Assembly (NCBI GenBank): GCA_965203355.1
Contig: OZ241889.1
Span: 3,104,001-3,168,000, forward strand
DNA length: 64,000 nucleotides
Source of the DNA: Candidatus Latescibacterota bacterium
GTDB lineage: Bacteria > Latescibacterota > UBA2968 > UBA8231
Reading direction: 5' to 3'
Part shown: positions 30,457-52,402 of the stretch, one piece after another
Position numbering within the stretch: position 1 is the stretch's first letter
Layout of the letters: the number at the start of each line of letters is the position of its first letter
Notes under the pieces: generated by a model
Databases searched by the model: none
Seen by the model: only the letters and a program-made list of their open reading frames with translations
Told to the model about the DNA's origin: nothing
Program-made: the position numbers and the translations under genes

Positions 30457-30878
30457 GCAAGAACTCCGAGCGCATGGCCGCGGAACTCGTCGAGTTGCGC
30501 CATCGGCTGGGCCCGTTCACCGCGCCCAACCAACAGGGCGGTGCGGACGGCGTTTGCTTCGAGTACCGGATCGAGGACGGTAGCCGCACCGGGGACACCG
30601 TAACCTTGGCAGTCGCAGTCCACGAAAACGAGGGCGAGTGGCCCGAAGTGGCACCGCACTGGGTGTATATCTCGCCGCCAGATACTGTTCTGGCCGAGCA
30701 AGTGAAGGGGGGGCAGCCGCCGGGAGCCGTCGAGACTTGGCAATGCGCCGAGGGGCACGACTGGATGGCGATCAGCGCTCCGCCGAGCGATTTCTGGGAT
30801 CGGATCGACACACCGAACGGAAAGAACATGCAGACCTATCTGGACAGGCATATCCGCAGAATCTGGAGTGCTCGTTGA
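30453..30878 (+). CDS. Prokaryotic E2/UBC-like protein
   Basis: WPEVAPHWVYISPP (UBC-like xPxxPP) and WMAISAPP..FW motif. ATGA overlap with the Ubl gene. Confidence 0.7.
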   Translation: MSKNSERMAAELVELRHRLGPFTAPNQQGGADGVCFEYRIEDGSRTGDTVTLAVAVHENEGEWPEVAPHWVYISPPDTVLAEQVKGGQPPGAVETWQCAEGHDWMAISAPPSDFWDRIDTPNGKNMQTYLDRHIRRIWSAR

Positions 30879-32374: not shown

Positions 32375-32714
32375 CGCATCTGTTCGGAGTCCGCCTTGCC
32401 ACTTCATTGTTGCTTCCTCTCCGACCCATCTTGATGCACTGTGGCCGGTGTAGCGCACCATCTATCTGGTGTTCACACAAAGCCTTTGTCAGAATCCGGG
32501 AACAACGGAAACCATCAGAATCATAACAGATTGCGTGATACAGAAAGTTTCCTTCTTTCTGTGGCTGCTAGCTCTGAACCCACCTCAAAAGGCCTCTGGC
32601 CTGACCAGTCGATTTCGCGCCGCCAGGCTCTTCGCTTCCGCCTCATCCAGAAGCCCAAGCCAGTCTCGCGTTCTCAACAGGCTGTTCGCAACATATTTTC
32701 ACTAGGTTCGCAAA

Positions 32715-32731
32715 TTGGCACGGCTCTTGAA
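32715..32731 (+). promoter_or_regulatory. Putative sigma54 promoter
   Basis: TTGGCACGGCTCTTGAA (-24 perfect, -12 TTGA variant). Perfect inverted repeat ACAGAAAG-N7-CTTTCTGT at 32540-32562 upstream. Confidence 0.5.
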
Positions 32732-32923
32732 TACGGACTACTACGACCCTTCTTTAATGCTTTAACGGGTTGAATTTACTTTTTTAGAAAGGGCCAAATT
32801 AAAAGGAACCAATGCGGTAATCAGCCATCTTTAGAGAAGGATCATTGCCCAAAAAAAGGGGCTTCATACATCTGCGCTCCTGCTATCTCTAAGCAGGGCT
32901 AATTCATTGAAAGGAGGCACATC

Positions 32924-34886: not shown

Positions 34887-35525
34887 CTAACGCCATTCCT
34901 CTGCGGTTGCGATCCGATTGACCGCTGTTGCCAGCCATTGGAATGCGGCTAATCTGTACAGAACACTAAAATCGTCAATCATTTCAGCCACGCGATGGAC
35001 ACTCGACCGCCAATTGAAGTGCTTTAGGCGACGCCCTTGTAGGCCGCTCGCCTGACTCAGAAGTTCGCGGATGCGTTTTTTGGGATCGGCTAACTCTTCA
35101 AGCCTTGTCACATCTGGCATGTCTAGGGGCTGAGTACCATTGGGATTGCCCGCAGCCCTTCTCAACGCAGCCTCGTTGATGAGCAACCACGCTTCCTGCA
35201 TCCGCACGGGCACCACGCAGACAACGCGTACCGAACCTTCCACGGAACTTTCCGCTAAAGCTCTACAAATTTCTGCCTCGCGCTCCTCGATTGAGTCACT
35301 CTCTGCGTCCCTATGCACAAAGAGCAGGTCGCAAGGATACAGTTCAACGCCTCTGTCAATGCGTTCAGAAAGTTTCCTAGGAGAGGGAGATAGACGGCGC
35401 AGGTCGGCAAACTCCGCTTGGATGGGAATCGCACCGCAGTACTGACGTAGCAGCCAAGTAAGAATCGGTAGAAGGGCACGGTCAGACGATCCGTCCGCCA
35501 CCAGCGTGTAGCGCAGTTCCTGCAT
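34887..35525 (-). CDS. DUF4276-like (TOPRIM-like) protein
   Basis: VADGSSD, FVHRDAE, VPVRMQEAWLL and EELADPK motifs. Lies downstream of an AAA_21 ATPase. Confidence 0.65.
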   Translation of the reverse strand: MQELRYTLVADGSSDRALLPILTWLLRQYCGAIPIQAEFADLRRLSPSPRKLSERIDRGVELYPCDLLFVHRDAESDSIEEREAEICRALAESSVEGSVRVVCVVPVRMQEAWLLINEAALRRAAGNPNGTQPLDMPDVTRLEELADPKKRIRELLSQASGLQGRRLKHFNWRSSVHRVAEMIDDFSVLYRLAAFQWLATAVNRIATAEEWR

Positions 35526-35541
35526 CCGGCACCAGATTTGC

Positions 35542-36990
35542 CTAGTAAAAAGACAGAAGAAGTTGCTGCATATCCTCCCTATCGACTACCCGCTTCTGTG
35601 TTGATGTCTCTATGTAATTCTTAGGCAGCACCGGGTTCAGATAAGGAAGCAGATCGCCGCGAGCGGCATCTTCGCTCACTTTGGCTCGCCAAGTATCGGA
35701 CAGGCCGAGAAAGTGAGCTTTTTTGCAGAGGCGTCCTTCCTCATCTATGGCCTCTCTTGCCTTTACAAATACGACGCTATCGTCCGGGACTTGTTGGAAT
35801 ACTGAAGGCGAGTGAGTATTGACGATCACTTGGCGTAGTGGATTGTCCTCTCCAACAGGCTCTTGGGTATCCACCGCAATATCCCTGAGCAGCTGCAGTA
35901 TAGCCGGGATCCGCGCCGGATGAATACCGTTTTCCGGTTCTTCCAAACAAATCACTCCCTGCATCTGCGGGTCGCTCTCCAAGACAGCCAAAGCGAGAAA
36001 GCGCAGGGTACCATCCGACAGGGCACGTGCCGGATGTAAGGTCCCCTCTTCGTTTTTTACATACAACGTCAATAGCTCCCGCTTCTCATCCCGCTCTATG
36101 TGAATATCATTCACACCCTCGATGAGTTCGGCCAAGCGGTTGGCGATCTGGCTATATACTTTTTGAGGGACCGAATCTACATGCCGCCCCAAGCGATACA
36201 ACGTAGCCGCCAGATAGCGACCATCCGCCTTTAAGTGAGTAGGAGCACCAAATTCATCGGGGCTTCTAAGTGCCGAAGGCTCCAGTTGCAACATTTGCCA
36301 AGATTCCATCTCTCGGCGAGCGACCAATGCCGTAGGGCTTTCCGCCGCATTGGCTGTGGAAAGCACGGTGCGCGGTAAATTAGCGGCGGATCGGGGCAAA
36401 GGACGCCCACTGCTGCCGCCATCCTGATGTAGTTTTATGACTCTGTTTTCTCCCTCGCCTGTAGTTGAAATGAAATAGGGGGCGTGGCGCTTGCCGTACA
36501 CGGCGGATTTGCGCCAGTCCTTTGCACTGTTGGGAAATAAGAGATGTCGCGGAGCATCACCGTGGGTGATATGGACTAATTCTTCTTTGACGATAGCGAG
36601 ATTACCTCGCACCAAGCTGTCGGCCGTCTCTCGGTAAGCAAGCTCTAGGGAATAGCGCAAAAATGTAATACTGGCCTTTGCCTCCTGCCCTAAGTCGTCA
36701 ATGGCCCACCGCGGCACGATCATCTCTGCCTCAAAGGTCATATGCTCAGCATAGTGGTCTCCCACGCGGTGAAAAAGGTCGCGCACATGTGCGGTGCGGC
36801 AGTCTTGATTGCGCACGGCGGCAGCGGCCTCCATGAGCGTGTGATTGGCCAATGCACTCAGAAACCGAATCGCGTCAAACAGGTTTGACTTACCCACCCC
36901 ATTCGGCCCAACTACACAGGTAAACGGACCGAGGTACAAATCCACATCCACCAGATTTTTGAAGTTAGCGACTTTCAGTCGAGTCAACAT
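35542..36990 (-). CDS. AAA_21/ABC-type (OLD/SMC-like) ATPase
   Basis: VANFKNL, GPNGVGKSN, LSDGTLRFL, LEEPENGIHP, NTHSP. Confidence 0.9.
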   Translation of the reverse strand: MLTRLKVANFKNLVDVDLYLGPFTCVVGPNGVGKSNLFDAIRFLSALANHTLMEAAAAVRNQDCRTAHVRDLFHRVGDHYAEHMTFEAEMIVPRWAIDDLGQEAKASITFLRYSLELAYRETADSLVRGNLAIVKEELVHITHGDAPRHLLFPNSAKDWRKSAVYGKRHAPYFISTTGEGENRVIKLHQDGGSSGRPLPRSAANLPRTVLSTANAAESPTALVARREMESWQMLQLEPSALRSPDEFGAPTHLKADGRYLAATLYRLGRHVDSVPQKVYSQIANRLAELIEGVNDIHIERDEKRELLTLYVKNEEGTLHPARALSDGTLRFLALAVLESDPQMQGVICLEEPENGIHPARIPAILQLLRDIAVDTQEPVGEDNPLRQVIVNTHSPSVFQQVPDDSVVFVKAREAIDEEGRLCKKAHFLGLSDTWRAKVSEDAARGDLLPYLNPVLPKNYIETSTQKRVVDREDMQQLLLSFY

Positions 36991-37166: not shown

Positions 37167-37901
37167 ATGGTCGAAACCAACGACATCCAACGCCCTCCCA
37201 AAGACCTCGTCGAGGCCCTCGCCTCCATTTCCAGCGCGACCGCGGCCGGCGAACTGGCTCGCTTGGGCATCCGCGATCCCCACATCCAAGGCCCGGTCGC
37301 CCGCATCCCGGGCAAACACGTCGTCGGCCCGGCCCTGACCTTGCAGTTCATGCCCAAGCGCGAAGACCAATACTCGGTTGATGAATACGCCGACCCAGAA
37401 AAGCAACTCCACCGCCACGCCCTGTACCACACCCAACCCGGCGACATCATCGTCGTCGATGCGCGCGGCGACATGCACAGCGGCGTCTTCGGCGAGATGA
37501 TGCTCACTTTCTTCATGGGGCGCGGCGGCATTGGCGCGGTCATCGACGGCTGCATCCGCGACTTTCCCAAGGTGGTCGAAGACCTCGACATCGGGCTTTG
37601 GCTGCGCGGCACCACCCCCAACTTCCACACCCAGACCAATATCTTCCCCTTCGCAGTCAACCAGCCCATCGCCTGCGGCAACACCCTCGTCATGCCCGGC
37701 GACATCATCGTCGCCGACGACGACGGCGCCACCGTCGTCCCAGCCCAACTCGCCCCCGAACTGACCGAAAAGGCCCAAGCCCACGCCGAGTGGGAGGACT
37801 TCAGCCGCATGAAGCTGGCCGCGGGCGGGCACTTGCGCCAATACTACCCTCTCAGCGAAGAAGCCCGCGCCGAGTACGAAACCTGGAAAAAGGAACAATG
37901 A
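37167..37901 (+). CDS. RraA/HMG-aldolase family protein
   Basis: GPALTL, VVDARG...GVFGE, VIDGCIRD, PGDIIVADDDG. Confidence 0.88.
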   Translation: MVETNDIQRPPKDLVEALASISSATAAGELARLGIRDPHIQGPVARIPGKHVVGPALTLQFMPKREDQYSVDEYADPEKQLHRHALYHTQPGDIIVVDARGDMHSGVFGEMMLTFFMGRGGIGAVIDGCIRDFPKVVEDLDIGLWLRGTTPNFHTQTNIFPFAVNQPIACGNTLVMPGDIIVADDDGATVVPAQLAPELTEKAQAHAEWEDFSRMKLAAGGHLRQYYPLSEEARAEYETWKKEQ

Positions 37902-39661
37902 ACCGCCGCCCCAACATCGTCTTCGTCCTCACCGACGACCAAGGCTACGGCGACTTGGGCTGTCACGGCAACAGCGCGATCCGCACACCGTGCCTCGACC
38001 GCTTCCACCAAGATGCCGTGCGCTTCACCGACTATCACGTCGGCTCCACCTGTGCCCCCACCCGCGCCGGCCTGCTCACCGGCCACTACTGCAACAGCGC
38101 TGGCGTTTGGCACACCATTGGCGGCCGCTCGCTGTTGCGTGCCAACGAGTGGACCCTTGCCGACGCGCTCACTGGCGCGGGCTATCGCACCGGGCACTTC
38201 GGCAAGTGGCATCTCGGCGACAGCCCGCCCTACCGCCCTCACGAGCGCGGCTTTGCCGAATCCGTGTACCACGCGGGCGGCGGCATTGGCAACACCGGCG
38301 ACCCTTGGGGCAACGACTACTTTGACGACACCTATTTCAAAAACGGCGTTCCCACCCCGTACGAGGGGTACTGCACGGACGTGTTCTTCCGCGAGGGGCG
38401 GCGCTTTATCGCGCAAAACGCCGACCGACCCTTCTTTTGTTACATCGCCACCAACGCGCCGCACGGGCCGCTCAACGTCGCGCCACACTACGTCGCGCCC
38501 TATCGCGACGCCACGCCACACGAAGACCGCGCCCGCTTCTACGGCATGATCGCCAACATCGACGAAAACTTCGGCCAGTTGCAGGCCACGCTCGACGAGT
38601 TGGGCATTGCCGACAACACCATCCTCATCTTTATGACCGACAACGGCACGGCCACCGGGGTCGAGCTAGACGACGATCAATTCCCCCGCGAAGGGCCGGG
38701 CAGTTACAACGCCGGTATGCGCGGCAAAAAAGGCTCCCAGTACGAAGGCGGTCACCGCGTGCCCTTCCTCATCCGCTACCCCAACGGACGCATCACTGGT
38801 GGCCGCGACATTGACGTGCTGACCAGCTACGTGGATTTCATGCCGACCCTGCTCGACTTGTGCGGAGTAAAAGTCCCGGCTGGCCGCACCTTCCACGGCC
38901 AGAGTCTAAGGCCGCTACTGCTCGGCGCAGGCAGTTCGGCTTGGACCGAGCGCGTCACCGTCTGCGACACCCAGCGCGTAGCTCGCCCGGTCAAATGGCG
39001 CAAGAGCGCGGTGATGAAGGACAAGTGGCGGCTCATCGACGGTCGCGCACTCTACGATCTCGGCGCGGACCCCGGCCAGCGTCAGGACCTGGCCGCTGAG
39101 CATCCCAAAATCGTCGCCGAGTTGCGCACGGCATACGATGAGTGGTGGGCACTCGTGTCCGAGCAATTCGACCGCGACGCACCAATCGCCCTCGGCGGGA
39201 GCGACCAACCCGTTAAGCTCACCACCCACGACCTCCGCAATGAGGCGTGTAGTGCCGTCTGGAATCAGCGCCAAGTCCGCGCCGGGCAGATCGCGAGTGG
39301 TTTTTGGGCGGTTGATGTCAAGGAGGCGGGACGCTACCAAATTGAACTGCGGCGCTGGCCCGAGGAAACCGGCTACGCGCTTGCTGCGGGGATTGAAGGC
39401 GACGATAGTGGCTGGTACCGCGCCGGTATTCAGCCGAAAAACGCGCCAGCCTACGAAGGCGGGCTGGCCCTCGCCCTCGGCTGGGCACAGCTAACCATCG
39501 GCGGTCAAAATCGCCAGCGAGAAGTCGATCCTGCCGCGACCAATACTTGCTTTGCGATTGACCTCGCCGCTGGCCCGGACCGACTCTACGCCTCGTTTCA
39601 CGATCGCACGGAGCGGACTATTGCTCCTTACTACGTGTACGTGCAGAAGTTTTCGGGATAG
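37898..39661 (+). CDS. Arylsulfatase
   Basis: PNIVFVLTDDQGYGD, CAPTRAGLLTG, GKWHLG, TDNG, YEGGHRVP. ATGA overlap. Confidence 0.93.
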   Translation: MNRRPNIVFVLTDDQGYGDLGCHGNSAIRTPCLDRFHQDAVRFTDYHVGSTCAPTRAGLLTGHYCNSAGVWHTIGGRSLLRANEWTLADALTGAGYRTGHFGKWHLGDSPPYRPHERGFAESVYHAGGGIGNTGDPWGNDYFDDTYFKNGVPTPYEGYCTDVFFREGRRFIAQNADRPFFCYIATNAPHGPLNVAPHYVAPYRDATPHEDRARFYGMIANIDENFGQLQATLDELGIADNTILIFMTDNGTATGVELDDDQFPREGPGSYNAGMRGKKGSQYEGGHRVPFLIRYPNGRITGGRDIDVLTSYVDFMPTLLDLCGVKVPAGRTFHGQSLRPLLLGAGSSAWTERVTVCDTQRVARPVKWRKSAVMKDKWRLIDGRALYDLGADPGQRQDLAAEHPKIVAELRTAYDEWWALVSEQFDRDAPIALGGSDQPVKLTTHDLRNEACSAVWNQRQVRAGQIASGFWAVDVKEAGRYQIELRRWPEETGYALAAGIEGDDSGWYRAGIQPKNAPAYEGGLALALGWAQLTIGGQNRQREVDPAATNTCFAIDLAAGPDRLYASFHDRTERTIAPYYVYVQKFSG

Positions 39662-39736: not shown

Positions 39737-40357
39737 TTATCCTGCGCCCAGTTCCTCGTCGAATAGCCGTTTGGCTTCGGCTTTGGCCCATTGCTCGCAT
39801 GCACGTGCTGCTTGGGTGGTCGGCTCGCGAACGTCCTGGGGAGCCTGAAGGTTGAGCTTGTCGAGCGCACCTTCCACCGCTTTTTGGAGCTGTTGTTGCT
39901 TCCATCGCCATTCGTCGGAATTGAGATACAGAACGGGCCATGCCAGTACTTCCTTGCGGCCGTCAAGCAGCTTCTGCAAAACATCCCGCGATGCCTCACG
40001 ACGGTTGTATTCGAGGTCAAGCTCGTAGCAGAGCATCTCATCGCGGTAGGTTTCCACCCGCTCTTGGACGAAGGAACATTGCTCTTGGGATGGAGGGATG
40101 GGGCCTGGGCTTGGCGTACTTGGCTCGCCAACGCTCTGACGCCGCTTGCGCTTGTTACTTACAATGACGCCCGCGGTGAATCCAATGGCTATACCGGTGG
40201 CTATACCGGCTAGAAACCATGTTATTTCATTATTTTCTTCTACCGAATCTTTCGGTACAACAGCGGCTCCTGCAATGGCTCCTGAAGCGGCTCCTGCAAT
40301 GGCTCCTGCAATGACCGCCGTACCAGCGGCTAAAGACACAATACTCTTCGTACTCAT
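39737..40357 (-). CDS. Glycine-zipper-like membrane protein, last gene of the dynamin operon
   Basis: Two Gly/Ala-rich hydrophobic segments followed by KRKRR and a helical C-terminal domain. The start directly abuts the upstream stop. Confidence 0.7.
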   Translation of the reverse strand: MSTKSIVSLAAGTAVIAGAIAGAASGAIAGAAVVPKDSVEENNEITWFLAGIATGIAIGFTAGVIVSNKRKRRQSVGEPSTPSPGPIPPSQEQCSFVQERVETYRDEMLCYELDLEYNRREASRDVLQKLLDGRKEVLAWPVLYLNSDEWRWKQQQLQKAVEGALDKLNLQAPQDVREPTTQAARACEQWAKAEAKRLFDEELGAG

Positions 40358-42367
40358 TTAGGCACTCCTCGCTTCGCTCGCTAGGTCATGGTCATATTCA
40401 GCTTTAAGTTCTTCTACTTGCAGTTTGCGCCGATCTAATTCCACAAGCTGATCGTCAATCTTTTGCTGCTCAACCTCATCTAACGAAGCTCCTTTTTCCA
40501 ACTCTTCTAAAAAATTCCGCTTCGCTCTGAAAATGTGCTGCAAACTACCTTCCATTGTATTAAGGGCCTCTAGTCCGAGCCGTTGCAACTCGGTGGCAAT
40601 TTTTTCAAATAATTCGTCAAAAGTTTCTCTCAGAAGCGATTCAAGTTCGTCTTCCAACGCCTTAGCAGCCTTCTTTTTGCCTAGTCCTGTACCACAGATC
40701 CTCTCCCACCAAGAAACTGCAGACCTCACAGCGTTCTCCAGAGTTTCTCGGTTAAGATCGTTTGTCAGCTCCGTTTCTGCATCCTTGCAAATTCTATAAG
40801 GCGGGAGGAGTAGTAAGTGATAGTTTGGTATATATGGTATATATATATCAATGGTCGATCCACTCGTTAGGAATATATCTGATAAATCACTCTCCGACTG
40901 ATTGAGGATGCGTTCGGTTTCTGCCACGATCTTCCTGATAGCTTCCACGAGAATAGAACGACTATCATACAGATGGCTCCCAATACTCATCGCTACTCCT
41001 GCCATATTGTCGATGCTAGGACAACTTTTAAGGTCATCTTCGATCTTTCTCATGATTTCACGAAGCGTTTCATTAATGCTCCTTTGCAGGGGATCTCTTG
41101 CTTCATCAAGAGCCTTCCTGAACTTCTTCATCGTGTTATCAACAACTAAATTTATCGAAACAAGGTTTTCTCTTGTCCGAGCGAAGTCTTTGCTGCGATT
41201 TTCCTGCGATAGGTTAATAGCATTGCGATTAGCCGTCAATATCGCCTTGTCTTGCGCGATGCTTTTATCGGCCTTTTCGAAGACGCTGTCCAAACGTGTT
41301 TGATGCGCCTCAATAATACCATCTCCTTTAGTCGCGATGATTTGTCGTTCAATGACATTGCGAAGTCGCTCAAGCCCATGTCTCTCTGGCTCTAGATAGC
41401 CCTTGCTTGATATTTCCCTCAAATTCCATGTCAAAACCTCAGGCAGGGGGCGACCTGCTTCTTGCATGGCGGAAACAAGCGCACCGAGACCGCTGACGAG
41501 TACGATCTGCTCGTCGTTTCCGAACAGTGCCTTTCCCCTCAAGTCTTCGCTATCTCGAGTTTTCCGAATGTGTCTCCGAATGGCTGCTTCGTCGGGCTGC
41601 GTATCGCACTTGTTCACCGCGATGATGCGCCGGCGAGGATCGATGTGTGTCAAGTACTTGTCAATAAACTTCACGTCATCCTCAGTCAGGCCTGCTTGCC
41701 CGGCAAAAGTGACGTACACCACAGCATCAGCGCGTTCGATCCACTCGCGGGTAATTTTGTCGCGCACCGGGTTCGGATCATTGGTTCCAGGGGTATCGGC
41801 TACTGTCACTTGATGCAGCCACGGACGATCGGCCCACAATTGCACCTGGTTGACATACGCGCTGTATATGCCACCGCTGTTACATACCGCCACAAACTGG
41901 CCGAGCTTATCAAGCCCATCCTCGGAAATGACGCACGGAGGGTTAGTAAGCAGATCGGATTCCCTAAGTCTTTCCGCACGAGCAGTCTCCCGTGCCTCTT
42001 CCAGGTCCTGCGCGGACCGTTCATCTAGCTTGCTAGCTTCCACCACCTCGCGAAATTCGTCAGGCGTGTACAACGTAGCCTCAACTCGCTCCGTTTCATC
42101 TCCTTCCATGAGTGCGATTTTGGCCGTCATAGTCGTAACGTGACTCGGCAACACCTCCTCGGAGAAAAGTAGGGCGTTAAGCAGGGTTGACTTCCCGTTG
42201 TTCATCTGGCCACAGACCGCGAGGATGAAGCGCTCTTCTTGTAGATTGGATTTTGCCTCCTGAAGTGCCTCCACGTCTGCCTTTAGCAATTCATGGTTTT
42301 CAACGACGCGGTCGTACCACTCGCAGAGGGTAGCTTTGTGCTTTTGGTGAATAGCTAGACCGTTCAT
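40358..42367 (-). CDS. Bacterial dynamin-like GTPase 3
   Basis: G1 GQMNNGKST, G2 TMT, G3 DTPG, G4 NKCD, long helical C-terminal half. Confidence 0.88.
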   Translation of the reverse strand: MNGLAIHQKHKATLCEWYDRVVENHELLKADVEALQEAKSNLQEERFILAVCGQMNNGKSTLLNALLFSEEVLPSHVTTMTAKIALMEGDETERVEATLYTPDEFREVVEASKLDERSAQDLEEARETARAERLRESDLLTNPPCVISEDGLDKLGQFVAVCNSGGIYSAYVNQVQLWADRPWLHQVTVADTPGTNDPNPVRDKITREWIERADAVVYVTFAGQAGLTEDDVKFIDKYLTHIDPRRRIIAVNKCDTQPDEAAIRRHIRKTRDSEDLRGKALFGNDEQIVLVSGLGALVSAMQEAGRPLPEVLTWNLREISSKGYLEPERHGLERLRNVIERQIIATKGDGIIEAHQTRLDSVFEKADKSIAQDKAILTANRNAINLSQENRSKDFARTRENLVSINLVVDNTMKKFRKALDEARDPLQRSINETLREIMRKIEDDLKSCPSIDNMAGVAMSIGSHLYDSRSILVEAIRKIVAETERILNQSESDLSDIFLTSGSTIDIYIPYIPNYHLLLLPPYRICKDAETELTNDLNRETLENAVRSAVSWWERICGTGLGKKKAAKALEDELESLLRETFDELFEKIATELQRLGLEALNTMEGSLQHIFRAKRNFLEELEKGASLDEVEQQKIDDQLVELDRRKLQVEELKAEYDHDLASEARSA

Positions 42368-44253
42368 AGTGAATGCTCCTTCATATTATTGATCCGTTTT
42401 TGGAGTTTCGTGAGTTGTTCGGCTTTACTCTCAGCCTTTGATTGATTTCGTTCTGTGGTACTAATGATGGCTTTCTTTAGATCATCTATAATGATCTGAT
42501 CGATTATAATGATCTGATCGATATCTGGATCTGGTACCGAATTAAAACTTGAGACTATATACTCAAACCATCCGTCTCTAGTAGATTTATCCTCCTTGAA
42601 TTCGCCCTGCCAAATCCCTCTTTCAGATTTCCATCTCACATCATGTCGAAAATCTTTTCTCATTTCTTTGGCTACTTCGGAAATATTATTATCGAGAATC
42701 TCTTTCAGTTCTTCAACAACTTTCTCGGGTTTGGATGTAGATTCTATATTGATACCAAAGTACTTTTCTAGGTGAGAAAGTAACACTTCATATATAGAAT
42801 TAATACGAAACCAATTATCATCGTCCATTATATTAATATTATTTAAAGAAACACTAAATCTAACTGTATAATAGCTAGTGTGCGAAAAAATCCCCTTTTC
42901 AATTCGCTCGCCCTTAACAACTATATCCTGGCCAACTCTTTCACAAATCTCTCGGATACAATAGAGCGTATCGCTCTTCGCTTTCTCGATCCTTTTAAGA
43001 GCAGTTTTACGTTTGGTTTCATGATGACTATCACTGGAAGAATCGTTTAGTGCATGTTTCAGTCCCATATCCACCTCAGAAAGCGTCTTTTGCAAGTTTT
43101 CTCGCAGTTGCTGGGTATTCCGCTGAAATTGCCGTTGAAGCATAGAGTGTCGTTCGGCTAGAATTTTGTTCACGATCTCGATAAGTTCCTCGCGAGATAC
43201 CAGCTCAAAACCTGATGAGAGAGGCGCATCGTACACATTGCCGGTGATATCGAGCTGATAACTCTTTGTAGTTAGTTTAGCCGAGATATTTTCTCGAAAT
43301 GAATCGCGCCTCTTGTACGCTTCTCGCATGCGATCCATCATTCTGTCCAGCGCGTCGAGCGGTTCCGCGTCTTCGGATTCATTCAACTGCAACGCAGAAA
43401 CAAGCACGACATCGCGGAATAGATCGCCGTGCTTCTCCTTGCAGAAACACTTCAACTCCCTACGTTGCGGTGGTGGCAGATCCTCAGCCTTGTTGAGCAA
43501 GAGGAATGTGGGTGGGTTGGTCGAATCTTGTGACAGCTTATTCAACTCGTCCAACAGCGTACCTGATGGATTGCCCTTGTGAGCATCCGCGATTACAAAC
43601 AACACATCTGATTCTCTGACAGCTTGTTTGGTTACTTCAGTATCAATCTCATTTGGCGGCGGAGCATTAAACCCGGGTGTATCGACAAGTCGAATGTGAT
43701 CGAGAACCGGGGAGTTTATCGAGATGCGGAAGGTATGCGACTCGTTGTCGCCCTCTTTCTGATGGCTGGCCAATGCGCGGTACTTCGTTTTACCCAAAGA
43801 AACCCATTTTCTATCCGCTGATTCTTGCTCAATGCGTTCTTGGTCGCCATGGACAAAGTACGTTACCGATGCGGTCGTCGGCTCATCGCCTACCGGGCAC
43901 ATATCCATTCTCAATAGTGCATTGATGAATGTCGATTTACCTGCACTGAAGTCACCGACCACCGATACGGTCAAAAGACCGAAACCATCCTGAAGATTGC
44001 GCTCCTCGGCAAGGTGTTCAATCAAGCTCTTTTCCAAGGAAACTAACTTATCCGCTAGTTCGCCGGTCAAAAGATCGAGTTCGGCATCGGCAAATTGGTC
44101 GCGAACAGATCGCAAGTCGAGGAGACATTTAATCGTAGCGTTGTGACCGATTGGCCGGGTGTCTTCCTGTGGAGCCGATGAGGGTACATCTGTTTTTCGC
44201 GACGACATAGCCTTCTTCTTCGGAGTAGCCTTCTTCTTACGCTTACCGCTCAT
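42364..44253 (-). CDS. Bacterial dynamin-like GTPase 2
   Basis: G1 GDFSAGKST, G2 PTT, G3 DTPG, G4 NKAE; Lys-rich N-terminus; ATGA overlaps at both ends. Confidence 0.88.
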   Translation of the reverse strand: MSGKRKKKATPKKKAMSSRKTDVPSSAPQEDTRPIGHNATIKCLLDLRSVRDQFADAELDLLTGELADKLVSLEKSLIEHLAEERNLQDGFGLLTVSVVGDFSAGKSTFINALLRMDMCPVGDEPTTASVTYFVHGDQERIEQESADRKWVSLGKTKYRALASHQKEGDNESHTFRISINSPVLDHIRLVDTPGFNAPPPNEIDTEVTKQAVRESDVLFVIADAHKGNPSGTLLDELNKLSQDSTNPPTFLLLNKAEDLPPPQRRELKCFCKEKHGDLFRDVVLVSALQLNESEDAEPLDALDRMMDRMREAYKRRDSFRENISAKLTTKSYQLDITGNVYDAPLSSGFELVSREELIEIVNKILAERHSMLQRQFQRNTQQLRENLQKTLSEVDMGLKHALNDSSSDSHHETKRKTALKRIEKAKSDTLYCIREICERVGQDIVVKGERIEKGIFSHTSYYTVRFSVSLNNINIMDDDNWFRINSIYEVLLSHLEKYFGINIESTSKPEKVVEELKEILDNNISEVAKEMRKDFRHDVRWKSERGIWQGEFKEDKSTRDGWFEYIVSSFNSVPDPDIDQIIIIDQIIIDDLKKAIISTTERNQSKAESKAEQLTKLQKRINNMKEHSL

Positions 44254-46028
44254 GGCCGACCAACCTTTTTAAGCCGCTCAATATCGTCTTGAATACGCGA
44301 CACCTTGGCGTTGCGCTCCTTGATATCGTTTCGTCGATCAGACTCAATCTGAGAAAGCACACTCTGCACTTCTTCAGACTCGCGCTTTAAGGGTTGAAAT
44401 ATTTCAGACTCGAAGTATGCCTCAATATCTCGGGCCGCTTGCTCCGAAACCTCCATGCAAATACGGTCCATTGGCTCGTCGATGCGCTCCTTTTTCAACC
44501 GCTCTCCAACCCAGACAGCGACAATGTTGATTATATTGACATCGTGCATAGTGGCAAGCATACTTTTTCCGACTTTCTTCAGCCCTTCGGCGGCTGCGCG
44601 TCTCGCCATTTTGGTGGATGCTTTGGCGGCCGCATGGCGCAATCCCGCACCGACCGTCGACTCTGCGGCAGTAGCAGCTACACCAGCACCAGGTAAGATC
44701 GCGGCAACCAGTGCGGCAGTAGTAATGGTTGCCGCCACGCTCATAATCTTGTTGGTGTCTTTCAACAAGCGTTTGATCTCCGCGTCAATCTCGCCAACAT
44801 GGTTATCCCGTTCTTGTCCCAGTCTCTTAAAATGCTCGCTAACCTTTGTTGCGAGTGCCGAGATGAATGCGCTACTGACCTGTTCTATGGTGATCTTGGC
44901 TGGTTGTTGATGATGGTCTAGTTGATCTTCATAGGTGAACTGTTCTATGGCGAGATCGTCTGACGCAGCGGCAAACCGACCCTTATAATCGGTGCATATT
45001 GCACTCACATCCCGGCGGAGATCATCGCGCGACTTATCGAAACGTTGCCGTTGCTGGTGTAGCTCTTGATCCAATCTTTCGCGTCGATCATTTGCCTCTT
45101 TCTGGCGCGACAAAAAATCTCCTTCCGACTCCAGTAAGCCACCCCGCATTTGCTCAAGCGTCGCGATTGCACCTGGCACCAAACGAACGCTGGCGCGATC
45201 TTGCCGTTCGGCCATAAGGGACGCCTTCCGCGCCTCGAACACCTCGTGGATAGCGGTGCGTAAAGTACTGACATCGCGCACTGCCGCCTCCGGACCAGCA
45301 CTTACGACCACAATGCGCCCCTCGGCTTCTGATTTGGCGCAGCCAATGGTCTGCGCCAGCGTGTCGGCAGTCTTCTCGGCGACCACCGCCCGCTCAGAAT
45401 CTGGCAATTGGTCGGCAAATGTGAGCGCGATGAGAAAGCGATGTTGTAGATGGCGAACGCCGGGAGAAGTAAGAAAATCGGTGACGGTACTCGTTAGCCC
45501 TCCCTTGCGGATATCCACGCAGATCATGGCTGCATCTACGAAGGGTAGCTTTCCCAAAGTGACCTCCGTGTGCTCTTGGAAAGCAGGCGTCGATAGTCCC
45601 GGCGTGTCGAGGAATACGAATCCTGCTGGAAACCCGGGCCGGGAGGGGAGGCGTACAAGTGGGCGGCCCGGCGTATGCCCGCGGGCGAGATCATCAAAAT
45701 CAGGACGACTGATTGCCGTCTGCTCATCCTCGTCGTCCACGCGAAAATACTCCGGCTCTTGGAGAGAAGGCGTCGAGATGACCTGTCCGGCCCGCGCTGT
45801 GCAAGGCTCGAGTTGCACTGGCATGAGGTCCTCCACGCCTACCAACTCGTTGATTAGCGTACTCTTGCCGCTACTGAAGTCCCCCAGAAAACCTATCTGC
45901 ACCGCATCATCACTCGTAAGGCTCTGGATATCGTCGGACAATCGGTCCAACTCCCACTGCGAGGCTACCTCGCGCAACACTTCCAACACTGTTGAATCAC
46001 CTTGTTCGGTCGTCACATTCCGCTCCAT
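44250..46028 (-). CDS. Bacterial dynamin-like GTPase 1
   Basis: G1 GDFSSGKST, G2 PCT, G3 DTPG, degenerate G4 TFAD; hydrophobic paddle-like segment; AGGAGG RBS. Confidence 0.88.
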   Translation of the reverse strand: MERNVTTEQGDSTVLEVLREVASQWELDRLSDDIQSLTSDDAVQIGFLGDFSSGKSTLINELVGVEDLMPVQLEPCTARAGQVISTPSLQEPEYFRVDDEDEQTAISRPDFDDLARGHTPGRPLVRLPSRPGFPAGFVFLDTPGLSTPAFQEHTEVTLGKLPFVDAAMICVDIRKGGLTSTVTDFLTSPGVRHLQHRFLIALTFADQLPDSERAVVAEKTADTLAQTIGCAKSEAEGRIVVVSAGPEAAVRDVSTLRTAIHEVFEARKASLMAERQDRASVRLVPGAIATLEQMRGGLLESEGDFLSRQKEANDRRERLDQELHQQRQRFDKSRDDLRRDVSAICTDYKGRFAAASDDLAIEQFTYEDQLDHHQQPAKITIEQVSSAFISALATKVSEHFKRLGQERDNHVGEIDAEIKRLLKDTNKIMSVAATITTAALVAAILPGAGVAATAAESTVGAGLRHAAAKASTKMARRAAAEGLKKVGKSMLATMHDVNIINIVAVWVGERLKKERIDEPMDRICMEVSEQAARDIEAYFESEIFQPLKRESEEVQSVLSQIESDRRNDIKERNAKVSRIQDDIERLKKVGRP

Positions 46029-46040
46029 AGTACGCGCCTC

Positions 46041-46355
46041 CTAAAAAGATAGACTTAGGGATTTGATGGTTTTGGCCGGTGCCCCGAGATCGGTGGGACT
46101 TGCCAACGCGGCCGGGCAGAGCAATACCTCTTCCCGCTTCTGTTGAGGAAGGGGATCGAGGGGAATAGGCTGATAAATGAATCTAGAGAATGCCCGAGAA
46201 AATCGGGGGGGGGGGGGTAACTCATTGTTTTTTAACGACTTACGGCAAAAAATAAAGCTCGGTATTGGCGTTATTTTAAGCGTTGAATAAGGTACAGCCA
46301 TCGCATCAAGTACCGCTCTGCAATGGTATTCTTTTACTATCGACGCTGTATCCAT
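46041..46355 (-). CDS. Putative leader peptide (104 aa, in-frame state)
   Basis: Contains KSLKNNELPPPPRFS. Its TAG overlaps the AGGAGG RBS of dynamin 1. Homologous to the split ORF at 15837-16339. Confidence 0.55.
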   Translation of the reverse strand: MDTASIVKEYHCRAVLDAMAVPYSTLKITPIPSFIFCRKSLKNNELPPPPRFSRAFSRFIYQPIPLDPLPQQKREEVLLCPAALASPTDLGAPAKTIKSLSLSF

Positions 46356-46389
46356 GTCCTGCTTAATCCGCCTAAGAGTGCCCGCAAGC
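46090..46389 (-). promoter_or_regulatory. Poly-C leader cassette B (300 bp; G13 at 46205-46217)
   Basis: Colinear homology with 16072-16371. Confidence 0.75.
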
Positions 46390-46522
46390 TAAGCTATCGG
46401 TTTAAGTTCAGCAAGAAACTATTACGCTATTTTTCTGTGTCAATACAAAACTGGATTAGCTTCGTGATAACCTACAAAAACGCCGTCATACGCCTATCTT
46501 GTCAAGAGCAGCACACTGCCCC

Positions 46523-48907
46523 CTAGCGCACCAGCAGCAACTTGCGCGTCTGCCGCTCGCGGCCAGCCCGTAGCTGGTACAAATACAATCCCGAAGCAAG
46601 CGGACGTCCCTGCCCGTCGCGGCCATCCCAATGCAGCACGTGCCGGCCAGCCGGCCGCTGGCCACCAACCAGCGTCGCTACGTGCTGCCCGGTGAGCGTA
46701 TAGACTTTCAGTTCGACCTCTTGGGCGCGGTCGAGCGCATAGCGGATCGCGGTCTGGCCGTTGAACGGATTGGGGAAATTCTGCTCCAAACCGAAGGGCT
46801 GCGGCCTCGCGTCTTCACGCGCCTCGCGGACGGCGGTGGGCGCGGCAAACTCCGTGCGCACCAGCCGCAGATCGTCAATGTAAAAGTGCCCTTCGACATT
46901 GGCGGCAAAGCGCACGGTCTCTATCGGCTGGTCGAGATTGCCGAACGCGCTTAAGGGAATTTCTAGCACCTGCCATTCCTTGCGCCCCAAATCCAACTCA
47001 CCCGCTCCTTCGCCCAAAAGCACGACCCGCCGGAAGCCACCGCTCGCCAACACCACCTCGACCACATCGCCTTCGGCCGGCACCACATCGCCGGGATGGA
47101 TCGCCAGCCGCAGCGCCCGATAGCCCACCGTCTCGATAGGCGTTGGCGGTGCCAGGTCTAACTGCCAAGGCAACAGCCGCGTCAGGGGGGCGGCGGTCAG
47201 CACGCCGGCCATCGTGCCGGTAAAAACCGGGCCGCTTCCGTCAAAGTCAAAGCGATCCAAACCCAAACCGGCCTTGGCGGTCCAGCCCGCAGCCAACTCG
47301 TCATCCGCGATCGTCAAATCCTCAGCCGGCAGCACTACCAACGTGTGCATGAGCGCGATTTCAAACGGACCTTCCCCGGTATTTTGCACCACCTTCACCG
47401 CGATCGGCTTGCGGCCGTTGGCCTGTGCGCCCGCCAAGGTAGCCGCCAGCCGATAGCGTCCGTCGCCCAAGTCCGCAAGCGGCGTTTCGGCCTCGCCGCC
47501 CAAGGCACTCAGATCCGCGGTTACCACCGGCGGCGGCGCTCCCCGGTCAAAGCGCGTCAGCGCAATCGCCGCCGACAAGTCGAGGGCCTGACCAGCCAAG
47601 ACCGTATCCGGTGGCTCAACCTCCCACTGCCCCATCAACGGCCCCATCCGCACCCGAAAAACCGCTTGGGTCGCGTGATCGCTGGAAACGTAGAGTGCCC
47701 CTTGGGCATCGCTTGCCAAGCCCACCGGCTTGCCCCAAACCCGGTTGCTACTCGGATTGGGACGAAAGCCGGTGAGAAAATCGGCTACTTGGGCCTTTTG
47801 CCCGTCTGGATCGCTAAAAACCACCATCACCTTATAGCCTAAATCGTTGCCCCGCACACCAGCGCGCAGCGCGACAAAGGCTTGGTTGTGGTATTCGGCG
47901 GGAAATTGATCGCCGGTATAAAAGTGGATCGCCATCGGCGCCGTGTGAGCCGCGACCGTGGCAACCGGCCTCGCCATCCGCTCAACGTCAAGCGTATCCT
48001 CGCGCGTAAAAGGCGCGATCGAGCGAAAGTACTCGCCAATCTCAAAGTCAACCCACGCCTGATAGCCGTGCGCCAGCGGCCAGCCGTAGAATCCACCCTC
48101 GCGCACGATGACAATGGTCTCAGGAGGTACGTCGCGCCCATTGGGAAAGCGGTCGCGGTCGTGGCCGTTGTTGGTCGCCCACAATGCGCCGGTAAGCGGA
48201 TGCAGCGCCAAACCTATGGCATTGCGCAAGCCGCGGGCAAAAATGCGCCGTCCCATGCCGTCGAGGTTAAAGGCCAGTATAGTGGCGCGCTCGGGATCGC
48301 GCTCGCGGCACAAATCGCAGGAGGATCCTTGATGCACGTATATGCGCTCGTTGGCCGCGTCGAAGACGATGGTGTGCGTAACGTGCTCTGCGCCGCCTAA
48401 ACCGGGGATCCACGTCGCCAGATCCGGGATAAAGACCGCGCGCTCTTCGTAAAAGCCGTCGCCATCGCCGTCCCTGAAGCGCACGACCTCATCGGTATCG
48501 GCCACGTACATGGCCCCCTGATAAAAGGCCACGCTATTGGGCCACAGCAGATCGTCGGCCACCGTCCGCACTTCGTCGGCCCGCCCATCCCGGTCGCGGT
48601 CGGGCAACGCCACAACGCGCCCGGTGCGATTGGGATCGGCCCTCCACTCGCTATTGCCTCGGGTGCCCATGACCGCCACGTGCAACACGCTGTCTGGACT
48701 CCACGCCATCAGCCGCGCCTTGCCGAGATCCTCGGCGAACAATTCGACGACAAAACCGGGCGGGACGTTTAAGGTCCGACTCTCCAGCCCTGCTACCGGG
48801 ACCGGCTGGAGGTGGAGGTCGATTTTTGGCGTCAGATAGACTTCGCCGGGTGCTTGGGCATAGACGCTGCTGACGAAGAGGCCAAGGGCAACAAGCAAAC
48901 GCATCAT
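46523..48907 (-). CDS. Glucose/sorbosone dehydrogenase-like beta-propeller protein with carbohydrate-binding-like domain and FlgD-Ig/T9SS-like CTD
   Basis: VPPGFVVELFA, GSSCDLCRE, ARGLRNAIG, GGFYGWP, AHTAPM, GKPVG; NFPNPFN...RKLLLVR. Confidence 0.85.
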   Translation of the reverse strand: MMRLLVALGLFVSSVYAQAPGEVYLTPKIDLHLQPVPVAGLESRTLNVPPGFVVELFAEDLGKARLMAWSPDSVLHVAVMGTRGNSEWRADPNRTGRVVALPDRDRDGRADEVRTVADDLLWPNSVAFYQGAMYVADTDEVVRFRDGDGDGFYEERAVFIPDLATWIPGLGGAEHVTHTIVFDAANERIYVHQGSSCDLCRERDPERATILAFNLDGMGRRIFARGLRNAIGLALHPLTGALWATNNGHDRDRFPNGRDVPPETIVIVREGGFYGWPLAHGYQAWVDFEIGEYFRSIAPFTREDTLDVERMARPVATVAAHTAPMAIHFYTGDQFPAEYHNQAFVALRAGVRGNDLGYKVMVVFSDPDGQKAQVADFLTGFRPNPSSNRVWGKPVGLASDAQGALYVSSDHATQAVFRVRMGPLMGQWEVEPPDTVLAGQALDLSAAIALTRFDRGAPPPVVTADLSALGGEAETPLADLGDGRYRLAATLAGAQANGRKPIAVKVVQNTGEGPFEIALMHTLVVLPAEDLTIADDELAAGWTAKAGLGLDRFDFDGSGPVFTGTMAGVLTAAPLTRLLPWQLDLAPPTPIETVGYRALRLAIHPGDVVPAEGDVVEVVLASGGFRRVVLLGEGAGELDLGRKEWQVLEIPLSAFGNLDQPIETVRFAANVEGHFYIDDLRLVRTEFAAPTAVREAREDARPQPFGLEQNFPNPFNGQTAIRYALDRAQEVELKVYTLTGQHVATLVGGQRPAGRHVLHWDGRDGQGRPLASGLYLYQLRAGRERQTRKLLLVR

Positions 48908-49061
48908 GGGCAACCTTTCTGCAAGTGGCGTAAAAACCTGTCTCTAAAAACGCACTCGCCCCCCATAAGAGCAAAACGCGCCCGCCGTGCGTTCCCAACA
49001 GATAGCGCGTTCATCCACCGCGTCTTATTTTTCCGCGCACACCTCACCCGGAGAATTCATC

Positions 49062-52292: not shown

Positions 52293-52402
52293 GGCAGGAA
52301 GTTAGGCGTACCGCCGCTCCCAAACAACGCGCCCGGGCATGGTCCTTTCATGCTGCGCCTGAATTGCAAACCTACGCAGAGGCACTTTTCCCCTACGTTT
52401 TC

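Follow-up and report, generated by a model that had tools for sequence, protein, structure and literature searches.

A predicted membrane-associated cassette of three dynamin-like GTPases and a small conserved protein in Latescibacterota and other bacteria

Described dynamin systems and the four-gene locus

The name Eleos reportedly covers the LeoABC of ETEC and the anti-phage system described as 'dynamin-like' by Millman et al. 2022. Extracts of the Eleos preprint describe a system of two dynamin-like proteins (DLPs), the P-loops of both being required (bioRxiv 10.1101/2022.05.11.491447), and one DLP is in some cases split into LeoB and LeoC. In Campylobacter jejuni, DLP1 and DLP2 (PDB 5owv/5oxf) form a 2:2 tethering complex, as set out in passages of the paper concerned (PMC6104087). 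DynA consists of two DLP units in one chain, and iniBAC comprises two DLPs and IniB.

The locus described here lies within a stretch of 64,000 nucleotides (the window) from a Candidatus Latescibacterota bacterium, on the minus strand of which the listing of open reading frames (ORFs) gives four tightly packed genes at 39737-46028. The first three encode the dynamin-like GTPases DLP1 (44250..46028, 592 aa), DLP2 (42364..44253, 629 aa) and DLP3 (40358..42367, 669 aa), followed by a small membrane protein of 206 aa (39737..40357). An earlier note on this DNA had recognised three full-length DLPs with a small membrane gene, and this was borne out, with all three passing the gathering score of Pfam Dynamin_N (27 bits), DLP1 at 37.5 bits (3.1e-9), DLP2 at 78.1 bits (1.1e-21) and DLP3 at 71.0 bits (1.6e-19). 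Chance cannot account for three such matches in a row. The ATGA joins it had pointed out are present as 4-nt stop/start overlaps at the DLP1/DLP2 and DLP2/DLP3 junctions, the fourth gene being adjacent without overlap through TAAATG. Because of these overlaps, the direct adjacency and the same order being kept in 7 loci, the four genes are regarded as one unit.

Upstream of DLP1 is a non-coding operon leader (46029..46522, minus strand), read from the sequence, with AGGAGG 8 nt 5' of the DLP1 start. Inserted in the leader is a dispersed repeat of ~280 bp with a C12 tract (46095-46385); genome G001 contains 12 near-full-length copies of it, it is unrelated to the dynamin genes as such, and it gave no match in Rfam. 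A 104-aa ORF at 46041-46355 sits within this repeat and has no homologue in related loci, therefore it is probably not a gene.

The cassette is like Eleos in having consecutive genes for bacterial dynamin-like GTPases with P-loops and long helical stalks, and in being accessory and often near defence genes. Eleos has two DLPs, but here there are three, all full-length, together with a conserved membrane protein, and all 7 complete loci hold three DLPs and the fourth gene in place of LeoA with LeoBC, or with split LeoB and LeoC. The PADLOC profiles for LeoA and LeoBC match all of the DLPs (5.7e-20 to 4.4e-11), from a library without cut-off, with partial or two-piece coverage and at 33-70 bits, modest scores for profiles of 560-600 positions; DLP1 is matched best by LeoA (5.7e-20) and DLP3 by LeoBC (3.8e-13), DLP2 has matches to both, and the orthologues behave alike. 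The earlier note had allowed that the genes might map to a described system, yet by the curated thresholds of NCBIfam they fall outside LeoA/HP0731 (NF041922, cut-off 325 bits; DLP1 19.1 and DLP2 18.4 bits, DLP3 not listed), DynA (NF052648; DLP2 25.1 and DLP3 38.1 bits against 1600, the genes here also being separate) and CrfC/YjdA (NF007368; DLP2 16.7 and DLP3 32 bits against 1146). A further difference from Eleos is that the solved relatives closest to DLP1 do not include LeoA, whose chain is absent from the best 60 of 102 DLP1-profile matches (E up to 0.41, with matches at E <= 10 counted) and ranks 36th by fold in Foldseek, after IniA, BDLP, Cj-DLP1/2 and mitofusins. On the evidence of its sequences, the cassette appears to be a real and undescribed variant of bacterial dynamin systems that is distinct from the described two-gene systems.

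The GTPases and the small protein

In dynamin-like GTPases the G1 motif has the form GxxxxGKS/T and G3 the form DxPG. G1 is present in DLP1-3 and all orthologues, as is G3, which is DTPG in 18 of 19 cases and DMPG in the DLP2 of locus L003. DLP1 has G1 GDFSSGKST, G3 DTPG and G4 TFAD, all invariant in 6/6 orthologues. Whilst the TFAD motif had been called degenerate and is indeed atypical, its invariance marks a trait of the family rather than decay; DLP2 also has an unusual G4, NKAE, kept in 6/6 orthologues, and DLP3 has canonical G1-G4 motifs with NKCD as G4.

It had also been claimed that only DLP1 has an obvious hydrophobic paddle, and the hydrophobic segment of such a putative paddle is indeed confined to DLP1. 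The Ala/Gly/Thr-rich segment at about residues 427-456 exceeds a Kyte-Doolittle value of 1.5 in 5/6 DLP1 orthologues, and hydropathy of the window copies and orthologues gave no such segment in DLP2 or DLP3. The AlphaFold2 model of DLP1 has long helices and a mean pLDDT of 76.7, falling below 50 in the paddle region, and its best Foldseek matches, which are full-length, are IniA (4.7e-12), BDLP (3.3e-11) and Cj-DLP2/1 (about 1e-10). IniA is also matched by the DLP1 sequence profile (3.6e-7), with ~15% sequence identity in the fold alignment. Judged by the model, DLP1 appears to be an IniA/BDLP-like protein and, like mycobacterial IniA and Nostoc BDLP, would have a hydrophobic membrane-binding tip in its trunk, as the predicted fold and the hydrophobic segment suggest. 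Among its listed homologues, 99 of 100 clusters at 90% identity reach E <= 1e-27.

The other two GTPases resemble the Campylobacter pair. The best solved relative of the DLP2 profile is Campylobacter DLP2 (5owv_C, 5.7e-13; Cj-DLP1 1.9e-3), and that of the DLP3 profile is Campylobacter DLP1 (5owv_A, 2.7e-24; BDLP 1.6e-13, Cj-DLP2 4.2e-4), so that one partner of each type is encoded adjacently; DLP3 has 165 representative clusters at E <= 1e-30. As in Campylobacter, the genes of the pair are neighbours in one operon, which is a predicted one here. Unlike in Campylobacter, the order is reversed, the DLP2-like gene coming first of the two, and the proteins are similar in the GTPase region only. 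The cassette adds a third DLP, with a putative paddle, and a putative membrane adaptor, the Campylobacter operon instead carrying an HcpA-like beta-lactamase in the passages mentioned (PMC6104087).

The Lys-rich N-terminal tail of DLP2 that the earlier note had singled out is present in the window but is variable, and it is missing from both Spirochaetia copies. Variation of another kind is seen in the trunks. In rough Nei-Gojobori estimates from a protein-guided alignment, which are least reliable in the most variable parts, sliding dN/dS for DLP2 rises from 0.2-0.4 in its GTPase domain to 0.6-1.0 in alignment columns 481-719, and for DLP3 it is 0.5-1.3 in columns 361-600; for the cassette as a whole, GTPase domains lie at 0.07-0.3 and the DLP2 and DLP3 trunk halves at 0.5-1.3. 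The note was correct that the block is AT-rich compared with its flanks (GC 0.42-0.52 against about 0.62-0.65), and the dip is strongest in these same C-terminal halves of DLP2 and DLP3 and recurs there in other hosts. The C-terminal trunk halves of both proteins thus seem to be fast-evolving and low in GC.

In the small protein an N-terminal hydrophobic anchor precedes a basic stretch (KRKRR) and a helical C-terminal domain (about residues 90-206), which is conserved and predicted to face the cytoplasm. Conservation is found in the C-terminal ~115 residues, where all 40 invariant columns of a 16-member alignment lie, and the AlphaFold2 model of this domain has four helices with pLDDT >90 over most blocks. 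The protein had been described as a glycine-zipper partner, and the GxxxG-rich helix is there in the window copy, but it is a second helix that an insertion has given to that copy and is not a feature of the family, since 14 of 16 aligned members have the N-terminal helix only; in most members one hydrophobic helix is followed by basic residues and then the conserved soluble domain. None of the family's 31 homologous clusters has a Pfam domain, no Pfam, NCBIfam or PADLOC profile passes for the protein, and Foldseek gave no fold match at E <= 1e-3, nor did VIA-align (best Z = 5.0). In comparison with iniBAC and its IniB, the small protein is one for which profile and fold searches detected no homology to any known family. 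Gene neighbourhoods, which the earlier note had proposed as a check, confirm that the small gene is kept together with the DLP genes, since it lies directly downstream of a DLP3 orthologue in 10/10 loci with the small gene (the window, L001-L008 and L018).

Distribution and neighbouring genes

The window and six other loci (L002, L003, L004, L007, L008 and L018) have the complete order DLP1-DLP2-DLP3-small gene, which is also consistent in three that are interrupted by contig ends (L001, L005 and L019). A degraded copy, L006, adjoins an rve transposase and keeps DLP3 and the small gene, with DLP1 gone. The host MAGs belong to Latescibacterota, Spirochaetia and Poribacteria. Of 167 Latescibacterota genomes, 4 gave a DLP1, as did 1 of the 401 Spirochaetota genomes that were sampled. 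Identity across phyla is 39-59% for DLP1-3, with DLP3 63% identical to the Poribacteria copy, and a single genome has two cassette copies whose proteins are 63-80% identical. The cassette GC is below that of the host, with the dip in every host. These comparisons show the cassette to be conserved, and probably horizontally spread and accessory. In the window, L002 and L004, from one Latescibacterota clade, its chromosomal position is fixed, as would also be expected under stable vertical inheritance, and the phage, viral and plasmid records searched held no copy.

Of 8 independent contexts, about 4 have defence-type neighbours (the syntenic group of window, L002 and L004, together with L005, L007 and L008). 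In the window HEC-01A/B (3.4e-103 and 3.2e-24) lies 2.7 kb from the cassette, separated by a sulfatase gene and an RraA-like stretch, the latter recognised by synteny with L002 alone; the syntenic L004 is without HEC-01. L007 adjoins a WYL/WCX regulator, L005 adjoins a SocA/Panacea antitoxin-like gene, and L008 is flanked by PDC-S15 (2.5e-61) and HEC-03B (3.7e-150). In L008 a PspA (PspA/IM30) gene also adjoins the cassette, a hint of envelope stress and not of phages. The contexts without defence-type neighbours are metabolic (L001 and L003), uncharacterised (L018) or, in L006, made up of the transposase and uncharacterised genes.

Possible functions and other dynamin trios

We give about an even chance to the reading that the operon encodes a four-part dynamin-like membrane machine, accessory and horizontally exchanged, most likely with an Eleos-like anti-phage or an envelope-guarding role. 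The earlier note had suggested a heterotrimeric membrane-remodelling or defence system, and a membrane-remodelling GTPase module with a dedicated partner fits the anatomy, whilst the patchy spread across phyla and some of the neighbours lend the defence role circumstantial support and make it plausible. The sequences themselves show which genes there are, in what order and how well conserved, with their domain families, motifs, distribution and pattern of variability; complex formation, membrane topology, trigger and defence role are what we infer from these genes. DLP2 and DLP3 would form a heterotypic pair, as Campylobacter DLP2/DLP1 do, and DLP1, the sole member with a putative hydrophobic paddle, would bind the inner membrane. 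The small protein may be anchored by its N-terminal helix, with the cytoplasmic helical domain serving as an adaptor or receptor by which the GTPases are held or nucleated at the membrane, in the way that eukaryotic Drp1 is recruited by membrane receptors; nothing favours the effector role that had been offered for it over that of an anchor. With the membrane under attack, GTP-driven assembly could then tether, seal or remodel it, and the trigger might be recognised by surfaces in the fast-evolving trunk halves of the paddle-less DLP2 and DLP3.

A credible, if somewhat unlikely, alternative is a non-immune envelope-maintenance module for stress-induced membrane repair, fusion or vesicle release, as with B. 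subtilis DynA or mycobacterial IniA/IniC, acting against antibiotics, pore formers or osmotic damage and not phages specifically. The closeness of the DLP1 model to IniA and BDLP, with the IniA profile match, the PspA/IM30 gene in L008 and the fixed position in three related Latescibacterota loci are all consistent with such a module, as are the roles in membrane repair or fission that the literature gives to DynA, Cj-DLP1/2 (PMC6104087) and IniA. However, occurrence in so few genomes of the phylum, two diverged copies in one genome and the cross-phylum identity are unexpected for housekeeping, candidate defence genes lie in several contexts, and the roles overlap, since DynA is reported to act in both repair and defence (PMC12998192).

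It is improbable that the cassette is a divergent Eleos of LeoA and LeoBC, with an extra DLP and a passenger gene, that works exactly as the two-gene system. The PADLOC matches in DLP1-3 and their orthologues are what would be expected of it, but the LeoA/HP0731 scores far below the cut-off and the distant place of LeoA among DLP1 relatives, by profile and by fold, argue otherwise; every complete copy also conserves the small gene and the third DLP, which are therefore not passengers. Two independent systems that merely happen to adjoin, one a single paddle DLP and the other a pair of DLPs served by the small protein, would be very improbable. Such a split could explain why DLP2 and DLP3 alone resemble a classical pair and why degraded L006 keeps DLP3 and the small gene without DLP1, yet the 4-nt overlap couples DLP1 to DLP2, DLP1 is in every complete copy in two phyla, and no locus was found with just one part except L006 by its transposase.

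The proposed four-part membrane machine can be set beside other dynamin trios, which are frequent in these phyla, so that the rarity of three DLPs in a row implied by the earlier note does not hold. Three consecutive Dynamin_N genes are found in each of L010/L012, L011, L013 and L014 in the same genomes, and some trios adjoin WYL or HEC-01A genes. As in the cassette, the first DLP has the sole hydrophobic segment in L011, L013 and L014, and none was found in the DLPs of L010/L012. These trios differ from the cassette in that they share 24-37% identity with DLP1-3, through local matches in the GTPase domain only, order the paralogue types differently (DLP3 resembles their middle gene) and have different accessory genes, without a homologue of the small protein. 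The Mx proteins of animals, with recognition through a variable stalk loop, offer an analogy for variable trunk tips. It is a speculative and rather doubtful extension, but bacterial dynamins might commonly act not just in pairs but also in threes. The cassette would then represent a single family within a broader and so far unrecognised class of immune machines built on three dynamins. Here two paddle-less DLPs with rapidly diversifying trunk tips would recognise phage structures, and the paddle DLP, with a dedicated membrane receptor of new fold, would give the membrane response.

The four genes and their products

The cassette lies on the minus strand at 39737-46028 of the window, and is made up of the genes for DLP1 (44250-46028, 592 aa), DLP2 (42364-44253, 629 aa), DLP3 (40358-42367, 669 aa) and a small membrane protein (39737-40357, 206 aa). 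An earlier note on this DNA had claimed three full-length dynamins in tandem, and this is borne out by the Pfam family Dynamin_N, the cut-off of which is passed by all three proteins (E values of 3.1e-9, 1.1e-21 and 1.6e-19 for DLP1, DLP2 and DLP3). The ATGA joints that it described are found as stop/start overlaps at the DLP1/DLP2 and DLP2/DLP3 junctions, but the small gene simply abuts its neighbour, with its ATG directly after the TAA of DLP3. The block is also as AT-rich as had been thought, with a GC content of 0.42-0.52 inside and ~0.62-0.65 in the flanks. The four-gene cassette is real and conserved and, as far as could be found, is a variant of bacterial dynamin systems that has had no earlier description.

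In profile searches the best solved relatives of DLP3 are Campylobacter DLP1 (2.7e-24) and then Nostoc BDLP (1.6e-13), those of DLP2 are Campylobacter DLP2 (5.7e-13) and then BDLP. In our reading DLP2 and DLP3 probably represent the classical heterotypic pair, with the order of the two genes reversed compared to that of the Campylobacter pair. DLP1, which we read as an added membrane-binding dynamin, finds the two Campylobacter proteins about equally well (3-5e-9), followed by BDLP and IniA (3.6e-7), and the LeoA chain is absent from the best 60 matches listed for its profile (E up to 0.41). An AlphaFold2 model, built for DLP1 from 25 input sequences (mean pLDDT 76.7), has long helices as well as a GTPase domain, and in Foldseek it comes closest to IniA (4.7e-12), BDLP (3.3e-11) and Campylobacter DLP2 and DLP1 (~1e-10), with LeoA at rank 36 (4.0e-8).

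The G1 and G3 motifs are found in all aligned orthologues, with G1 invariant within DLP1 and one exception in G3, a DMPG in the DLP2 of locus L003. The G4 motif is NKAE in six of six copies of DLP2 and NKCD in DLP3; the TFAD that had been called degenerate in DLP1 is present, but it is the same in all six copies. A hydrophobic paddle had been claimed for DLP1 alone, and a hydrophobic segment is indeed confined to DLP1, an Ala/Gly/Thr-rich one at residues ~427-456 being above threshold in 5/6 orthologues, and the model has a pLDDT below 50 at this segment. The Lys-rich N-terminal tail reported for DLP2 is a feature of the window copy, but the Spirochaetia copies are without it.

Homologues of the small protein form 31 clusters (53-82% identity), none of which carries a Pfam domain, and the protein itself has no family match in Pfam, NCBIfam or PADLOC. 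Sixteen members, picked from 32 listed rows to cover the range of identity, were aligned. All 40 invariant columns fall within a conserved C-terminal domain, which is preceded by a single hydrophobic helix at the N-terminus and a basic stretch. The protein had been described as a glycine-zipper membrane protein, but the GxxxG-rich second helix is an insertion in the window copy, with only one other member having an insertion there, and a different one, so that a glycine zipper is not the defining feature of the family. In the predicted model (mean pLDDT 72.4, with most 10-residue blocks between residues 90 and 206 above 90) the C-terminal domain is a four-helix arrangement. This fold found nothing in the PDB at E <= 1e-3 with Foldseek, whilst the Foldseek-independent VIA-align wide search gave a best Z of 5.0, in the range of generic helical bundles, and a search of the ESM Atlas gave no usable match; the fourth component is one without a known family or fold. 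Basic residues flanking a membrane helix mark its cytoplasmic side, the positive-inside rule, and as such residues follow the last hydrophobic helix (KRKRR in the window copy, R-rich in relatives) this suggests that the conserved domain probably faces the cytoplasm, the side of the dynamins. A complex prediction for DLP3 and residues 85-206 of the small protein gave a score of 0.00 in both runs, which is neutral on binding.

Upstream of the operon, at 46095-46385, there is a stretch of ~280 bp with a run of 12 C. It was considered as a possible shared regulatory element of dynamin operons and rejected, as it is a repeat, dispersed in genome G001 in 12 near-full-length copies (79-82% identity), one of them upstream of another dynamin trio (L010), and with fragments in genome G142. 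The repeat may be a miniature mobile element, and its C12 homopolymer tract could affect expression. The region upstream of the operon has no Rfam match, scans for promoter and terminator consensus did not outperform shuffled sequences and placed no site before the DLP1 gene, and a 104-aa ORF at 46041-46355 was rejected as a gene.

Distribution and neighbourhoods of the cassette

Scanned with the small-protein alignment, one genome per species (185,579 species) gave eight loci. MAGs of Latescibacterota account for five, a single genome holding two of these, a Poribacteria MAG for one and Spirochaetia MAGs for two. A tblastn search with the four window proteins gave the complete order DLP1-DLP2-DLP3-small gene in five of these (L002, L003, L004, L007, L008), whilst in L001 and L005 the contig end falls inside DLP3. 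The eighth (L006:5891-11541) is a decaying copy that is without DLP1 and whose DLP2 has lost its N-terminal ~160 residues, with a Myb-like ORF upstream and an rve-family transposase gene that overlaps the end of the small gene. Searching with DLP1 added two Latescibacterota genomes, with a complete locus in one (L018) and a locus that runs off its contig in the other (L019), which brings the tally, window counted, to seven complete loci, three that are cut yet consistent and one that is degraded; no intact locus of other composition was seen among these 11. The partnership of the small gene with the trio, as claimed in the earlier note, is upheld by the same four-gene order in all seven complete loci. 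The cassette is rare, with DLP1 found in 4/167 Latescibacterota genomes and in 1/401 sampled Spirochaetota genomes, the latter a genome that was known already. A metagenomic candidate from the small-protein alignment (L009, 30% over 49 residues, no adjoining DLP) was treated as spurious.

The flanks of the window are 84-93% identical in DNA to those of L002. In the window, L002 and L004 a DUF7133/GSDH or GFO/IDH/MocA oxidoreductase gene lies upstream, and sulfatase and RraA-like genes lie downstream; from this we infer that the window probably derives from a related member of the Latescibacterota, and that the cassette probably occupies a fixed place within this clade. Several observations point to probable horizontal spread. 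L003 is a second copy in the genome of L004, at another site and with proteins 63-80% identical to those of L004, the identities between Latescibacterota and Spirochaetia are 55% for DLP1, 39% for DLP2, 45% for DLP3 and 56% for the C-terminal domain of the small protein, the dip in GC is repeated in hosts of 0.62 and 0.68-0.70 GC, and a relative of DLP1 with 72% identity is named as coming from a Gemmatimonadota MAG. No relative of the small protein or DLP3 turned up in viral contigs, and none of DLP1 in a phage collection. Plasmids held one distant dynamin (28.5% identity over 32% of DLP3) and no copy of the cassette, and a search of genome contigs with DLP3 alone gave no match.

The genes beside the cassette vary. 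In the window and L002 the sulfatase and RraA-like genes are followed by a pair matching HEC-01, a PADLOC candidate defence system (A 3.4e-103, B 3.2e-24), which is missing in the syntenic L004 and is thus a variable insert. In the window this pair lies at 34887-36990 (minus strand), and consists of a 482-aa ABC-type ATPase that is the HEC-01A match (Pfam AAA_21/AAA_15) and a 212-aa partner that matches HEC-01B. Downstream of the cassette, L008 has a pentapeptide/FRG protein (candidate system PDC-S15, 2.5e-61), PspA together with a YbjN-like gene, and HEC-03B (3.7e-150), L007 has a 134-aa ORF and a regulator of the WYL/WCX type, and L005 has a SocA/Panacea-domain gene. L001 and L003 have metabolic neighbours, and the L018 copy is preceded by five low-GC ORFs that are uncharacterised and followed by purL. 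Neighbours of defence or toxin-antitoxin type thus occur in about four of eight independent contexts, which is suggestive of a role in defence, not decisive.

Further along the window, at 30638-34747 (plus strand), there are genes for a 578-aa ThiF/E1-like protein (PADLOC E1-E2 to 1e-16, BilD 8.5e-6) and, after it, for one of 607 aa that weakly matches the SpoIVB/S55 peptidases; the two lie within a block of lower GC (0.54), and may be another conflict system. Sulfatases, a CBM30-bearing GH5 cellulase and a DUF7133/GSDH protein are encoded in the flanks at 37598-39661 (plus strand), 46523-48913 and 50343-54000 (both minus strand), and several of them carry C-terminal sorting domains of the FlgD_ig or Por_Secre_tail type; the flanks are a neighbourhood of secreted enzymes for polysaccharide degradation and bear no relation to the cassette.

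Dynamin trios beyond the cassette

According to two papers (PMC4159319, PMC6104087), bacterial dynamin-like proteins occur as a rule as side-by-side pairs or fusions. In open full text no account of a prokaryotic three-dynamin operon was found, bar a passing one for a genomic island of Helicobacter pylori, in which 'three dynamin-like protein helical superfamily proteins' are named (PMC8935386); the instance tables of the Millman preprint (e.g. Table S5) may list multi-gene variants. A Dynamin_N scan of five host genomes found several separate three-dynamin runs, with three trios each in G001, G002 and G004. The other trios share 24-37% identity with the cassette, in local matches of the GTPase domain only, and DLP3 is likest to their middle gene. 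Their accessory genes differ. Four uncharacterised ORFs lie downstream of the trio in L010 and L012, and one of these encodes a long coiled coil and, at the N-terminus, a membrane helix; in L011 ~12 ankyrin repeats are fused to the third dynamin, L013 has HEC-01A downstream (4.6e-155) and L014 a WYL regulator upstream. In L011, L013 and L014 the first dynamin is again the sole bearer of a hydrophobic segment.

When clusters are defined as at least three same-strand Dynamin_N hits (E <= 1e-7) with neighbours no more than 3.6 kb apart, and counted by eye, Latescibacterota have 17 in 12/167 genomes (any hit in 27), as against 5-6 pairs, and one genome has four dynamin genes in a row (G134:C1:5718832-5725368). 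In Spirochaetota such clusters are found in at least 12/301 sampled genomes, with any hit in 40. The trio clusters of the two phyla suggest that the pair model of bacterial dynamins is incomplete, and this side finding may outweigh the cassette itself in importance. A further arrangement is seen at L017:3653-5848 (minus strand), in a 731-aa fusion protein that has an HTH_3 DNA-binding domain at its N-terminus, joined to a Dynamin_N GTPase domain, and several hydrophobic segments towards its C-terminus; its gene adjoins one for a DUF445 membrane protein.

Possible function

It is reasonable to regard the cassette as a putative defence or remodelling system. To our knowledge the sole validated dynamin defence system, Eleos (LeoA + LeoBC), has two genes, whereas the cassette has four, in an order shared across phyla; its additions are a third dynamin of different build and a membrane protein. 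Our best reading, held with middling confidence, is of an accessory membrane machine similar in kind to Eleos. The PADLOC profiles of LeoA and LeoBC hit all three dynamins (5.7e-20 to 4.4e-11). It is improbable that the cassette is plain Eleos; the composition differs and the curated NCBIfam cut-off for LeoA is missed, LeoA/HP0731 scoring 19 and 18 bits against 325. Nor is any other curated NCBIfam family reached by the three proteins, with DynA at 25-38 bits against a cut-off of 1600 and CrfC at 17-32 bits against 1146. The main rival, a module for envelope stress without an immune role and akin to DynA/IniA, is possible and in our view rather unlikely. DynA is reported to act in both defence and envelope roles (PMC12998192), so that these two readings are not mutually exclusive. 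The idea that two systems stand side by side by chance is contradicted by the coupling of the genes and their co-conservation, and is very hard to credit.

If the cassette is a membrane machine of the Eleos kind, the DLP2/DLP3 pair, the paddle-bearing DLP1 and a membrane-anchored adaptor would assemble at the inner membrane, where the dynamins may spend GTP to tether, seal or reshape an attacked membrane, to the presumed benefit of the cell. Candidate surfaces for recognition of the trigger are the variable trunk halves. A sliding Nei-Gojobori analysis of five Latescibacterota copies gave dN/dS of 0.07-0.3 in the GTPase domains against 0.6-1.0 in DLP2 alignment columns 481-719 and 0.5-1.3 in DLP3 columns 361-600, a large contrast and a rough estimate, because the alignment is poorest in the most variable regions. 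These stretches are also the low-GC stretches of the two genes, and the contrast singles out the trunk halves of the two dynamins as the probable fast-evolving surfaces of the system.

The cassette offers a handle on how bacterial dynamins are recruited to the membrane and on what triggers them. If the defence reading is true, bacteria would have in these fast-evolving trunk halves a counterpart of the regions that determine specificity in antiviral Mx dynamins.
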